A stretch of DNA of 64,000 nt from Tubiluchus corallicola (taxonomy: Eukaryota; Animalia; Priapulida): the NCBI GenBank assembly GCA_030141605.1, contig JAQGDQ010000093.1, positions 62,001 through 126,000 of the forward strand, written 5' to 3'. The notes under the pieces are model-generated. The model saw only the letters and a program-made list of their open reading frames with translations. It had not been told where the DNA came from and ran no database searches. Numbering within the stretch: the first letter of the stretch is position 1; every line of letters starts with the position of its first letter. Positions 13,201-55,200 of the stretch are shown one piece after another. Both the position numbers and the translations under genes were made by a program.

Positions 13201-16200
13201 AATATAGTACTGAAAAACTTGGTTGATTCTTGTTTGGTAGGAAGCAACACAAATACTGTAGTCAATCATGCCATTCGCAGCAGCTAGAAGCAAAGAGAAA
13301 AATGGCGAATCGCGATCACTTTATGATGCTATTAGACCTCTTATTTGGGTTATGAGATTTCTTGCAGTATGGCCAGTGGTGGAAGCACCAATACATGGAC
13401 AACACAAATACAAATTACTACGCAATGTTTGTTGTATTTTGTATATAATTATTGTCAATATATCTCTGCCTTTATCGTGTAGACAGTTAATACACGCTAA
13501 CATGACTTTTTATTACAGTTTCGACACTGGAAGTTTTTTGTTCAGTTTGTCAGTGTGGGGGATAATTTATGTTCAAATGGTATTCATTATGATATATTTT
13601 ATTTGTAAGAGGAACAAACTGGCCACATTTCACCATAAATGGCAACCTCTGTTTAACGACACTGATGACAACACGAAAACCAAAAAAAAGACGAAAGGAG
13701 GAACATATCGCACTGCTCGCCGAGAAGCAATCAAAAACATTATCATTCCATTTGTATACATAGCATTGCTGCTAATAATCCTGGCCCTCCCAAATTTAGC
13801 AAGAAAGACCCAGACTGACACATCAGAAACCAGCTTGAGTGATGCCGTAATAAAAAAGCTGTTTAAGAAACTGGAAAGAGACATGTACATCGGAACCTTT
13901 GCCTATTGTTTTGTAATTTGCATGTTGCTTATATCGGTATCATTGCTTGTTGTAATATGCAACATACTAACCAAAGAATTTGATAAAGTAAATGATGACA
14001 TCACAGAAGTGGCAGCTAGGCTTACTGTTAATCAAACAATTACAACCAAAAGTAGGAATGGAGACTTGGAAATTGGGGAAGATGATGAAACCGAGCTGTC
14101 AAGTCATGAAGATTCATTTGTGAAGTTACACAAATTGAGAAAGAAGCACCAGTACCTAACCAACCTCGTAGTGAAAACTGACGATATATTTTCGCCATTC
14201 ATTGGTTTTATTTATGCATCTTCTGTAGTCCTTGTATGCCTGATGTTGTATATGATAATAGCCACATTCGAGAAAGGTGGATTGAGCTTCGAAAGACTCA
14301 GCGTGGCATTGGGGCTAAGCCACTGGATAATCATCGAAGTCGGCAACATGACAATGTTGTCTGTTGCTGCTTCACACCTCAAGGAGAAAGCTCAGGCAGC
14401 TCTACTAGTCACTTTTGATGTCACGCTGTTGGATCTTCCGGTTAGAGAAAAAACTGAGGTAAAATATTGTTAATTACTAAATCCTCAATAGTATGATAAA
14501 TTATATAGTTATCATAAATAAGTATTTCGATTGTTAAAGTTTACGTGCAATGCCAATGTGCTACTTAATCACATAAAGGACAATAATGGTTCGATTGTCC
14601 TTTATCGGTGTTCTTGTCGTTTATAAAAACAGATGCTGCCGTATCTGCCGTAAAATCCACTGGGATTAGTTCACATTAAGCACAACCTTCATTTTACCCT
14701 CACATCTTGGTTTGTCAGACAAAAGCGGGGAAACGTCAATCTGAAATTGCCGATTGTCCATATTTCCCGATACTAAGCTAATACAGTAGGCGCCGTGCAT
14801 TAGACTCAATGTAATGTAGAATCAATCGCCTAATTGTCTTAAAAGCGCCTAGTATGGACTGCTCCTATACAAAAGTATATAAAAACTGTCAGCAATTGGC
14901 TCAAATAACTCCACATAATTGACTCTATTTTTTCTGTACATGTTTAAAAAGATACTTTTGTTAAGTACAGCGTTGTTAAACATTTGTTGCGATGTAACGA
15001 GGTAAACAAAGTGATGGCCCACCAATTAGGGGTCAGCTCATGAAACATCGGACTGTGTCCGTAGTATGTGGGATTTTTTAACGTTCCAGATGTTGTCCAA
15101 TATTTCTGATATCCGTAAAAGCGAGGTTTGGCAAACTGAGAATTTAGTGTACTGTTTTTACCATCATCTGATGTGTCAATCGCGCAAAATGTTTCTGCTG
15201 TAACTTGGTAACCGTTCAAATCAGGTGGCACACCAGTTACTTCACTTTGTTTGTGTGATAACCAGTGTCTCTTACTTTTATCAGTATTGCTGCAACACTT
15301 AGAAATGCATTCAGTCTTTTGACACGCTCAAGATGAGTTTTATAAAAAGCGTGTTCGTGGGTTACAATAACACAAATCTGATGATTTAGTCACTTCTGAT
15401 TGCTGTTGGCTAGATGACCCAAAAATCGATGCCGATTGATGTTCTGCACCATGTGACTGTTCTTAGTAGGTGGCTTACCCCAATTTTTACAGTGCATTCA
15501 GACTAGCGAAAATTCTTGCAAGAAGTTGTTCTTATCAATTCAAAATCCTAATAATAAAATCCACTCTCTATTGTCAGATGCCCATACTTATAGATATCGT
15601 ACTCCTCATAATCTAAAATACCTCTTATCTAGATGCAGAACAGAGAGAGTCAAGAAAAGTTTTATCTCATACGGTTTATTTAATTTCCAAACTTAACATT
15701 AGACATATTTTAATTTACTTCGTTCATGTATCTTGTAACAGTGCATAGTGATTGTGGCTGTATGTTCAGCCGTGCTTACTGTTTTAAAAATTTTTAGATT
15801 TGTGTGTTTCCAAACCAAAAACCATCCATAAGTCGGCATAGTTAAAACTATGTTATGATGTTTCAAAGTAGAATGTACAAAACATTTGGTCAAAAGTCAG
15901 TCTTTTGTTTTTTTTTAATAAAAACAAATGCTAAATATATTGGACTTTTATATTCTAGCATCAAATTATCCAGAAAATGTACAAAAAATACTAAAAATCT
16001 AATTTTGTAACTCAGTACCCACTTTTCTGGCTAGAAACTAGTACTGCAATAGTAAAAAAATGTGCTTCAAACTTGTAATGTTGATAGTAGCTCGTGGAAG
16101 CAGTCATTTTGTTTCGGGTTTTTTCTGTTGCCAAGCCCAGATCTTCATCAGGAAAAGCCATCTACTGGATTTAAACATAACTTCAATATGTTCTTGCAAA

Positions 16201-52200: not shown

Positions 52201-55200
52201 ATTAGAGCTGGTACGGCAAATCCAGAATTTGCCTTTGTCCATGTCATCTTGATGGCTTCATTTGCGCTGACGACAATGTTTGTTAGAACTCTGTGCGTGA
52301 TTTTTTGCAGCAAGCTTGATAAAGTCACTCACAACTTTCAGCAATTTACAGTGGAACAAAGACAAGCAATGAAGACACAGGGAAAGGAAGGGGGCAGAAG
52401 CTATGGATGGTCAAAAGTGCAAAAGCTAATAAGCAAGCACCAAGACTTTGTGAACGTAATAACTGAAATGGACAATCTGTTTTCGTATTTCATATTAATA
52501 ATATACTTCACAGCAGTGATAATGATATGTGTATATCTTTACAATATAATCGCCATTTTCCAAACGCTGGGGTACAACAAAACATCTATAAACATAGTAA
52601 TTGGAACAGTAGTATGGCTTCTTTTGGAAGTTGTCATCATTATACTGTTATCTATATCTGCAGCTGGTTTGAGTGAAAAGGTTCATGCACCATTGCAGCA
52701 TGTTCATAACGTAGCATTCAGTGGCTTTACCATCGAGGAAAAAGCAGAAGTAAGACGCAATATTCTTTTTTGTTGTCTGTTTAAATTAAAGTTGAGGTCA
52801 GAAATCTGACAACATATTAGTCTAATGGTGACCAGTAATCAGTTAAGTGCAGGATAATAAATACTTGTTTTTTTTACAATAATTCATACTTAAATTTATT
52901 TTGAATTGTTAACACATTTAGTTGCAGATGTTTGCGACAAAACTGTCTGGTCCAAGGATTGGTATCACTGGTTGCAAATTGTTCTCTATCAGTCGAAGCT
53001 TTATGCTAACGGTACGTGTGCTAATAATTAATAATTAACTGTTTGCTATTTAAGTTACAAACAGTTACATTAAGTTAGAAGGCTTTTTTGGTTTTGCGAT
53101 ATCTTATAAACAAAAAGAAAAGAATATAAGCTTCCAAGTAACGTAGGATAGAAAACATAGGATAGAGCATGCTAAAAACGCGTACAAATTGCATTTGAAT
53201 GTTCGATGTTCATCGCTAGTAACAAATATGCAATACGTTTAAATTTTAAAATAGACATCGGAAAATAAAGAGCGCAAAGAAATGTAATAAAGTAAATCGG
53301 TGTCCTAAAAACCTAGCTGGCCAACTGAAAGCCAAATTTGGCAAACTCTCATACAACAAAGGGCCTGATTAATTTGTCAATAAAAATACTGTTTAAGAAA
53401 TAACACTATTTTACTATTTATTACAAACCAAATTAGCTTGTATTTCAACACAACCATAGCGAAAAATCTGATTCTTTTACCAAATATTACCAAAGCTTGA
53501 GGGGCCCTAGGCAGCAGCCCACAACACTTTGCAATCATATTTAAAACTGCTTCTCCTTGTAGGTGTTTGGTGTACTGGTTACATACATTCTGCTGCTTAT
53601 TCAATTCAAACCAAACATGTTGGAGGTTGAGCTACCGATGACTAATAACACAAGCCTCATGGATCCTTGAAATGTCAATGAATGAGAACAATAAAAGAAT
53701 CAGTCTGAAAATAAGACAGTGCTCTTCAGACACTTGCCACGGTCGCATTAGTAAAAGAAGCCAGAATGACCTTCAAGTCTCGAAAGGTTCTCTATATTTC
53801 TTCAGAAAGTTTCGTCCCTCACGGACGTCATCTGCTCTACAGTGAGATGCAATAATAAAATTACAGGTAAAACTACGCATAAAATGAAATGAAGGTATAC
53901 CTTGTCATTAACATAAAAGATACAAAATTAATAAACCAGTTGTATTCATCAATTGAATTAGAAAGAACATTAAAGTTATGAATATTTTGTTAATGTTTTT
54001 CTTAATTAGCAACTCCATGCTCCGTGCTCCGCTTTTTGCTGGGCATACATGAAAAACTAGAATAGACTACTCTACTCCCTAGTGTGTGAAGCCAGACTGG
54101 GAGAAACTAGTCCAATTGACCAAAGGACAAGAAAAGGGTACCCTTCGGAAAAGTCGCCTTAAAAAATCACACTACTTTGCAGCATGTTTATGCATTTATC
54201 GTACTCACGTTAAAAATAATTTTTGTTTGTTTTCATTTTAAATCTCCTGCAATGCTATTCCGACCACGCCATTAGATGATATCACAGTAAATCAGGCGAA
54301 GAAAAGGAAATGTTAAACTACGTCCCAAAAAACCTTCCATGCAAAATTATATTACTTAGTATTTCGTTTACCGGCTTGAAAGACTTATGTAAGCAGAAAA
54401 AAATTATTACTTATTTACAATGCTTCCACCAGTAATTGGTAAAATGTCATTGACTCACCTCCAGAATGCACCACTCACAAACTAAAAAACATATTTTTAA
54501 TCTTACTGACAAGACACAGTAACTTAAAATTTTGCTTAGTTAGTGACGTGCGCACTACGAATACTCTGATTACGTTTTCAAACCTTACTCAGTGTTATCT
54601 AAACTTGTTTCAAATGGCTGTGCCTAATGGTCATTGTGGGAGTTTAAATTTGCTAGTTTTACACAGTGTTACTGCCAAGGCAAACCCTGTATGCAAGAGG
54701 CAATATGTAAGTGTTATAAAATTTCAAGACGAATTTTTTAAGCTTTATGTAAGTAGAGGGTTTTCTCGTGTTTCAAGGCGGCCCTGTTTAATGGCCTTGC
54801 TTGAGGGGACCTACATAAGAACTGACATCTTTCCAACATGTGACGTAAAGCTGTGGCTGTTATCTATCTATTATCTCTAAATCCATGAGAGTTACCTATA
54901 ATGTGTAGATAATTTGTGCATTTGCTCCACACAAGGTAAGTTTACTTAGACAAATAAAGGCACAATAAGAATCACACAAATAATGTATCTAATTTTGTAT
55001 GAGTGCAGCTATCTGGTAAAAAAGCATTAATAGCATCATTAGCACAACATGTAAACTAGTGCAGAGAACAGTGCCAGCTAGTGTGGCATGCAAATTAATG
55101 CAAAGAATAGTGCCAGCTACTGTGCCACGCAAACTAGTGTGAAGAATAGTGCCTAAACTATGCGTAACCCAGGGAAGCCATTGCTAGTACATTTGTTTAA

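Follow-up and report, generated by a model that had tools for sequence, protein, structure and literature searches.

The window analysed here is a 64,000-nt stretch of the genome of the priapulid Tubiluchus corallicola (GenBank assembly GCA_030141605.1, contig JAQGDQ010000093.1, positions 62,001 to 126,000, forward strand). Its plus strand carries a tandem array of six genes, termed G1 to G6, which by profile, fold, TM7 motif and intron positions belong to the gustatory receptor/gustatory receptor-like (GR/GRL) family of seven-transmembrane ion channels (7TMICs). Together with three genes for class-A GPCRs (G protein-coupled receptors), the array most likely lies antisense within a large intron of FANCD2.

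Structure of the six-gene array

The six genes begin as long plus-strand open reading frames (ORFs) at positions 13268, 23477, 26982, 33683, 42886 and 51586, giving first exons of 397, 382, 396, 389, 383 and 388 codons, respectively. Each exon 1 is followed by its own exon 2, exactly 90 nt long in all six genes, and then by a terminal exon 3 of 33-39 codons, stop included. All 12 introns, which range from 172 to 5,386 nt, are of the GT-AG type and in phase 0, and splicing by coordinates generates products of 463, 445, 464, 454, 445 and 453 amino acids, none of which contains an internal stop. The coordinates thus recover the architecture proposed in an original prediction made from the sequence alone, which had described six genes with a 382-397-codon exon 1, a 90-nt exon 2 and a short exon 3, phase-0 introns throughout and neither stops nor frameshifts, in an array extending from 13268 to 53670. 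Pairwise amino acid identity between the products is 24-35%, the exception being G5/G6 at 81%. The exon 2 peptides display mutual identities of 57-93% and their order behind each exon 1 is constant, which excludes chance as the origin of the exon sets; exons 2 and 3 are probably spliced to exon 1 in each gene. The exons, all on the plus strand, are as follows.

13268..14458, plus strand: G1 exon 1 (S0-S6, 397 codons); 7tm_7 62.5 bits, AlphaFold2 model, structure alignment
19845..19934, plus strand: G1 exon 2 (S7a, 90 nt); Trehalose_recp 357-384, E 0.023
20721..20831, plus strand: G1 exon 3 (S7b, TYhhhhhQF, tail, stop); 7tm_7 352-368, E 0.099
23477..24622, plus strand: G2 exon 1 (382 codons); 7tm_7 47.8 bits
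24872..24961, plus strand: G2 exon 2; Trehalose_recp, E 0.0003
25411..25512, plus strand: G2 exon 3; spliced model
26982..28169, plus strand: G3 exon 1 (396 codons); 7tm_7 42.4 bits
30062..30151, plus strand: G3 exon 2; spliced model
31511..31627, plus strand: G3 exon 3; spliced model
33683..34849, plus strand: G4 exon 1 (389 codons); 7tm_7 18.6 bits, E 0.0012, under the cut-off
36400..36489, plus strand: G4 exon 2; Trehalose_recp, E 0.042
36993..37100, plus strand: G4 exon 3; spliced model
42886..44034, plus strand: G5 exon 1 (383 codons); 7tm_7 37.1 bits
44895..44984, plus strand: G5 exon 2; spliced model
45778..45876, plus strand: G5 exon 3; 7tm_7, E 0.045
51586..52749, plus strand: G6 exon 1 (388 codons; recent G5 paralogue, 81% amino acid identity); 7tm_7 44.1 bits
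52922..53011, plus strand: G6 exon 2; spliced model
53563..53670, plus strand: G6 exon 3; spliced model

The genes belong to the GR/GRL family

Pfam 7tm_7 scored above its gathering cut-off in five of the six exon-1 ORFs, all but G4, while exon 2 weakly matched Trehalose_recp near the C-terminus of the profile in three genes (G1, G2 and G4) and exon 3 weakly matched 7tm_7 positions 352-369 in two (G1 and G5). The score for 7tm_7 exceeded that for 7tm_6 in all four proteins that matched both, and 7tm_6 was absent from the other two, a pattern that does not class the proteins as insect odorant receptors (ORs). The GPCR profile 7tm_1 found no match in G1-G6 at E ≤ 1, whereas the three neighbouring GPCRs (R1-R3, below) match it strongly. 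The family topology has seven transmembrane helices, with the N-terminus inside and the C-terminus outside; hydropathy identified seven segments in three of the proteins and six in the other three. A phmmer comparison of G1 exon 1 with PDB sequences returned a single match (E 1.2). An AlphaFold2 model of the same exon, covering S1-S6, was generated from the six-sequence alignment (pLDDT 70, pTM 0.70). The top 17 Foldseek rows for this model were all insect GR, OR or Orco structures (E 6e-5 to 1e-3), with no GPCR among the fold matches listed, and VIA-align returned Z scores of 16.7-22.8 for eight insect GR/OR/Orco chains, the next unrelated row scoring 9.5. The values against Orco, Gr43a and BmGr9 were 20-23. 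Thus, the profile search against 7tm_7 and Trehalose_recp and the comparison of the G1 exon-1 fold with BmGr9 and Orco, both of a kind proposed as checks in the original prediction, agree with its assignment of the genes to the GR/GRL channels.

The TM7 motif of the family is defined in PMC7746228 as (T/S)Yhhhhh(Q/K/E)(F/L/M). The sequence TYhhhhhQF, and also the longer TY(F/I)xLLxQFKP that had been predicted, are present in all six genes. Three further motifs proposed at that stage were right in substance, but too strict as written. Looser forms of LYDAIRPLI and GLTG.KFFTI.RSF.LT occur in 6/6 genes, the exact forms in only three and one, respectively. H..L......D..FS is found as written in none, the invariant H and D being spaced by 11 residues and not 10.

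Relatives and intron history

A profile search of 1.84 billion database representatives identified 85 matches at E ≤ 0.001, five of them at ≤ 1e-10; there were no relatives of the array at E ≤ 1e-30 among the representatives searched. Thirty of the 85, selected by score and tree position and thus not a random sample, were looked up, and the 24 that carry names comprise 11 arthropod, six mollusc, two annelid, two hemichordate, one echinoderm, one cnidarian and one priapulid protein. With the exon-1 profile the named top ranks were occupied by Ptychodera (1 and 5), Priapulus (3) and Owenia (7), the only arthropod being a 2,024-residue beetle model at rank 4. When only the last 110 residues of exon 1 were scored, fragment P0019, from Priapulus caudatus, was the best of the 85 (mean 121, next 104); scores within the array over this segment are 114-233, G5/G6 excepted. 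The fragment aligns without gaps and breaks off reading through the same intron site as the first intron of the window genes. The look-alike clusters in the Atlas are mostly from Arthropoda. A word-index search with the exon-1 alignment gave 7,996 candidates, not one of which reached E ≤ 0.01, and none of the 141 pattern matches to the exon-2 alignment in metagenome contigs was confirmed. The papers returned by literature searches for priapulid gustatory receptors dealt with other subjects; the principal surveys of GRLs, whose tables may include priapulid members, lay outside those searches.

The window genes formed one group in both phylogenies that were constructed. In FastTree (69 rows, with 63 of the 85 homologues after removal of seven that were poor or oversized and 15 unnamed sequences shorter than 250 residues) the support was 97, and in IQ-TREE (29 rows, consisting of 23 named homologues and the six window genes) it was 95/77. 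The predicted lineage-specific subfamily therefore emerges as a clade of its own when set against arthropod GRs and non-arthropod GRLs. In the FastTree phylogeny this clade is weakly grouped (85) with rows from chelicerates and myriapods. In IQ-TREE no named arthropod row joins the six genes.

The ancestral GR is described as having three phase-0 introns (PMC9998090). To place these sites, 83 of the 85 matches were aligned, the two longer than 700 residues being omitted. The exon-2 segment is spanned by 33 of the 83, of which 28 have exactly 30 residues there; 43 end in a valine, the read-through of GTN, at a point 23 residues short of the exon 1 end; two, one of them from Priapulus, end at the first intron site of the window genes, and five were unplaced. 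The tally was made by script, and one of the 43 rows is spurious and one more is misfiled among the 33. Two of the three ancestral introns are present in all six window genes and the site of the missing first is marked by the homologues that break off there, a distribution that points to G1-G6 having kept the second and third and lost the first. Altogether 45 of the 83 homologues stop at an intron site.

Conservation and divergence within the array

With helix limits taken from the G1 exon-1 model, mean pairwise identity among G1-G5 is 0.15 in S1, 0.30 in S2, 0.17 in S3, 0.17 in S4, 0.30 in S5 and 0.33 in S6, rising to 0.67 in exon 2 and 0.76 in S7b. The contrast between these last two values and the 0.15-0.30 of S1-S4 is that expected from the conserved pore and divergent ligand helices of the original prediction. 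Across exon 2 and S7b, pN is 0.11-0.22 against a pS of 0.57-0.81 in 14 of the 15 gene pairs, and 0.04 against 0.34 in G5/G6.

Divergence between G5 and G6 is patchy. Their dS is 0.08 over codons 1-60, 0.34-0.64 over codons 61-240 and 0-0.11 over codons 241-383, and for exon 2 and S7b it is 0.35-0.53, a heterogeneity with a chi-square of 39.5 (3 df, p 1e-8) for regions that were set after the data had been viewed. The likeness of the two genes (42558-44055 versus 51245-52771) reaches ~330 nt upstream of the start codon, with near-identity at 42834-43058 and 43638-43862. The pattern, including the upstream likeness, suggests gene conversion and a conserved promoter; conversion would have homogenized the 5' end and S5-S6 while sparing S2-S4.

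After QFKP each protein has a tail of 15-21 residues, in which an N-x-S/T sequon is kept in 6/6 genes at a tail identity of 19%. The shuffle product for this sequon, 3e-4, is too favourable, as genes of common descent are not independent. Similar tails are found in the Mactra, Solemya and Lottia homologues. The C-terminal tail of G1-G6 is thus predicted to be extracellular and N-glycosylated.

Two gap-free pieces of G1 exon 1 were present in the low-depth run X5, with 33/230 and 50/283 differences (82-86% identity), and in the same run FANCD2 differs at 41/259 positions and R1 at 34/298, 37/254 and 35/250. As the G1 pieces are gap-free and their divergence resembles that of FANCD2 and R1, a diverged relative appears to have maintained the gene. 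Run X5, compared over window positions 950-20900, bears the species label of run X1, but its coding pieces show differences of 11-18%, as would be seen if the species were cryptic or the label loosely applied.

The array probably lies in a FANCD2 intron

Successive parts of FANCD2 are matched by five exons on the minus strand at 1-5.4 kb, at Pfam positions 689-758, 759-796, 797-897, 912-937 and 956-991. Judged from this sequence order, the upstream part of FANCD2 must lie to the right of them. Together with R1-R3, the features outside the array are listed below.

63475..63556, minus strand: candidate FANCD2 exon A (weak); poor donor score, no database match
62210..62308, minus strand: FANCD2 exon B (99 nt, phase 0-0); chicken FANCD2 623-643, E 0.01, top splice score of 99
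60763..60836, minus strand: inferred FANCD2 exon C (74 nt, phase 0-2); splice score tied second of 99, frame fits
5367..60762, minus strand: inferred 55,396-nt FANCD2 intron (phase 2); exons B-D, phases, splice scores
5107..5366, minus strand: FANCD2 exon D (260 nt, phase 2-1); human FANCD2 690-756 (PDB), E 2e-6
4157..4272, minus strand: FANCD2 exon E (116 nt, inferred GC donor); Pfam profile 759-796
3580..3912, minus strand: FANCD2 exon F (low end approximate); Pfam profile 797-897, E 9e-15
1043..2328, minus strand: another two FANCD2 exons, around 2200-2328 and 1060-1200, boundaries not pinned down; Pfam profile 912-937 and 956-991
6973..7935, plus strand: R1, intronless class-A GPCR; 7tm_1 113.5 bits
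10649..11542, plus strand: R2, intronless divergent class-A GPCR; 7tm_1 68.6 bits
57104..58081, plus strand: R3, intronless divergent class-A GPCR; 7tm_1 62.3 bits

When the 12 GRL introns and the left-hand FANCD2 sites were used to train splice matrices, exons B and C came first and tied second, respectively, of 99 open-frame minus-strand candidates to the right of position 5,400. The phases of exons A-E fit, giving 210 codons without a stop. By offset from the exon alignment, exon B ends at about human FANCD2 codon 649, and the human variant c.1948-16T>G marks an intron at about codon 649/650 (PMC3388349, Table 2). The splice ranks, phases, open frame and human intron position together make a single intron of 55,396 nt the most likely arrangement. 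The human exon that follows codon ~649 is presumably also 74 nt in length, like exon C. Judged from these features, the intron at 5367-60762 most likely holds R1, R2, G1-G6 and R3, all antisense to FANCD2, and G1-G6 likely arose by tandem duplication inside it. This setting, both the nesting and the three GPCRs, is absent from the original prediction. FANCD2 itself is intron-rich, likely spans the whole window and has an inferred GC-AG intron after the exon at 4157-4272. A FANCD2 exon query for longer homologues found none among 688, and the literature searched included no paper with both 'FANCD2' and 'gustatory receptor'. The minus-strand ORF at 56593-56814 was rejected as a possible FANCD2 exon, as it matched repeat proteins only, had no Pfam match and is left no room by exons C and D.

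R1-R3 flank the array on the same strand. R2 and R3 are divergent paralogues (33% identity), R1 is ~20% identical to either, and the best matches of R1 are insect orphan amine-receptor-like proteins (29-31% identity).

Other features of the window include minisatellites in introns and spacers at 4743-5076, 30914-31313, 46053-46596 and 55866-56200, with periods of 42, 59, 35 and 48, and abundant interspersed repeats of very high summed contig depth at ~4035-4080, 15800-16470, 28200-29700, 36580-36730 and 38200-38500. Two copies of a similar stretch, probably a repeat element, lie upstream of G4 (~32270-33000, high-copy in run X1) and of G5 (39210-39870). The Rfam search returned no matches, including for the high-depth repeats. 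An additional GRL fragment on the minus strand at 16274-16381, a lone weak tblastn match (E 0.075) in a repeat-rich stretch, was rejected. In run X6, which is guessed to be RNA, the pieces listed over G1-G4, FANCD2 and R1-R2 were repeats only, and carry no weight either way on expression.

Discussion

We consider it probable that the window holds six intact GRL genes forming their own clade, tandem-duplicated within a FANCD2 intron and predicted to encode ligand-gated cation channels that are tetrameric and differ in the solutes to which they are tuned. G1-G6 would be transcribed separately from the plus strand in sensory cells, and the spliced exon 1-2-3 products would assemble as tetramers. 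In the insect receptor BmGr9 the T of the TM7 motif rings the pore, the Y binds a pore lipid, the F plugs the closed pore and the Q swings in on opening (PMC11100771). By analogy with BmGr9, four exon-3 S7b helices would line the pore, and the ligand pocket would be formed by S2-S5. Solute binding in this pocket would move S5 and S7b, such that the F, which would plug the closed gate, would give way to the Q as it rotates in, allowing cations to enter. A chemosensory role is predicted.

Several observations weigh against this interpretation. G4 exon 1 reaches only 18.6 bits with 7tm_7 (E 0.0012), below the Pfam cut-off, and the modelled G1 fold is that of exon 1 alone, exons 2 and 3 (S7) lying outside the model. 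With the spliced profile the highest full-length scores belong to Mactra, Ptychodera and Lottia, and IQ-TREE does not recover Priapulus as sister to the six genes but leaves it in an unresolved fork. Positive selection on the G5/G6 pocket is not supported because overall dN/dS is 0.38 and approaches ~1 only in codons 201-240, where the alignment is gappy. With respect to the nesting, chicken FANCD2 was the best match to exon B among 177,635 PDB sequences, but at an E of only 0.01 and with no Pfam match, while exons A and C have no database match alone. It could therefore be argued that the FANCD2-like exons at the two ends of the window (60-63 kb and 1-5 kb) represent different copies or a misjoined assembly, and indeed no contig spanning the region was seen in the runs examined. 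The pieces are, however, collinear and non-overlapping, with phases that fit and no stop over 210 codons; B and C stand first and tied second of 99 by splice sites learned from other introns; there is no second copy of A-C in the window, and the B/C border falls at about the human intron site (PMC3388349). Separate copies or a misjoin are thus improbable.

Functionally, the few characterized non-insect GRLs covered in PMC7746228 are often non-chemosensory, as exemplified by LITE-1, GUR-3 and Nematostella patterning, and G1-G6 could likewise be 7TMICs that sense light or oxidants, like LITE-1 and GUR-3, or act in development, as GRLs of Nematostella and sea urchin are reported to do. One homologue, P0048, is indeed automatically named 'high-energy light unresponsive protein 1-like'. 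Against such roles, the tandem array, the S1-S4 identities of 15-30% and the conserved pore have the pattern of a tuned receptor repertoire, and the array sits beside divergent intronless class-A GPCRs, a class tied to invertebrate chemoreception (PMC11886862). We therefore regard a non-chemosensory function as rather unlikely. The array might also be one alternatively spliced locus, in which any exon 1 is joined to some downstream exon 2-3 pair. Drosophila Gr28b and Gr39a reportedly splice alternative first exons to downstream exons in this way, and cross-splicing would keep the frame as all the introns are in phase 0. Each exon 1, however, already has its own complete and conserved exon 2, exon 3 and stop, whereas the shared-exon loci that we know of have a single 3' set only, making this explanation very improbable. 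It is harder still to credit that the genes are silent recent pseudogenes. There are no stops or frameshifts in any of the six, pN is far below pS, and gap-free G1 pieces persist in run X5; the eight coding differences among the rows listed for run X1, which may be the window's own sample, are three silent and five conservative.

On the favoured reading, as solute-tuned GRL channels, G1-G6 add a separate clade to a known family. Their genomic nest is unusual, but the system is of a familiar kind, since there are precedents for GRLs beyond the arthropods, for tandem arrays and for antisense nesting. GRLs are reported from annelids, nematodes, molluscs, echinoderms, hemichordates, cnidarians and placozoans, although their functions are sparsely documented (PMC7746228, PMC5850775, PMC11526382). 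A non-arthropod array, which the original prediction had considered especially notable, is less striking than supposed because the family is described across protostomes, ambulacrarians, cnidarians and placozoans (PMC7746228). The non-insect GRLs compared (Priapulus caudatus XP_014679403, Ptychodera flava XP_070540457, Mactra KAL4225658, Lottia ESO97566, Owenia CAH1786854 and Nematostella EDO42598) share with the window genes a 7tm_7-type fold, TYhhhhhQF and the 30-residue segment between the last two intron sites, and those of Mactra and Lottia also have QFK and a sequon-bearing tail. They differ in that identity to G1 is at most about 34%, the window genes form a separate clade, and the latter lack the first ancestral intron, at which 43 of the 83 homologues (one spuriously) break off. 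With the insect proteins BmGr9, Gr43a, Gr64a and Orco/ORs (PDB 8vc1, 8jm9, 8jme, 8z9a) the S1-S6 fold (Z 20-23, rmsd 4.0-5.3 over ~310 residues) is held in common, as is the pore motif T-Y-h5-Q-F. Identity is, however, 9-14%, sugar specificity cannot be carried over, and the TPY motif of the Gr43a subfamily was not seen in the G1-G6 alignment.

Nesting in antisense orientation is common, and in Drosophila ~10% of genes are in nested structures, 71% of them on the opposite strand (PMC3814207). The window resembles these antisense nests in placing fast-evolving, likely narrowly expressed genes on the opposite strand in an intron of a conserved gene, but differs in that nine receptors of two unrelated 7TM superfamilies would occupy one intron. 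Lophotrochozoans are described as having lineage-specific tandem expansions of class-A GPCRs (PMC11886862). R2 and R3 are similar to these in being divergent paralogues (33%) with no close relatives shown, in a receptor-dense locus; in contrast, the window has only two or three such genes, and R2 and R3 were compared with Pfam alone. A more speculative proposal, which we think unlikely as it stands, is that this priapulid-grade ecdysozoan has a mixed chemosensory cassette, in which six ionotropic GRLs and three metabotropic class-A GPCRs would share control on one strand of one FANCD2 intron, gene conversion homogenizing the anchor helices while the pockets diversify.

The likely nesting in FANCD2 may hide the array genes from automatic annotation, 45 of the 83 homologues breaking off at an intron site. 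It would also provide a fixed single-copy landmark by which to locate the array in relatives and estimate its age. Data on GRL function outside insects are very sparse (PMC7746228), and the ancestral role of these proteins may or may not have been chemosensory. A good test set is offered by G1-G6, which are intact, have diverged deeply, keep a canonical pore and include the near-isogenic G5/G6, which differ mainly in S2-S4. Were the cassette proposal true, an insect-style tuned GR repertoire would have arisen independently outside arthropods, and the locus would supply a small panel with which GRLs from neither arthropods nor nematodes could be screened for ligands for the first time.

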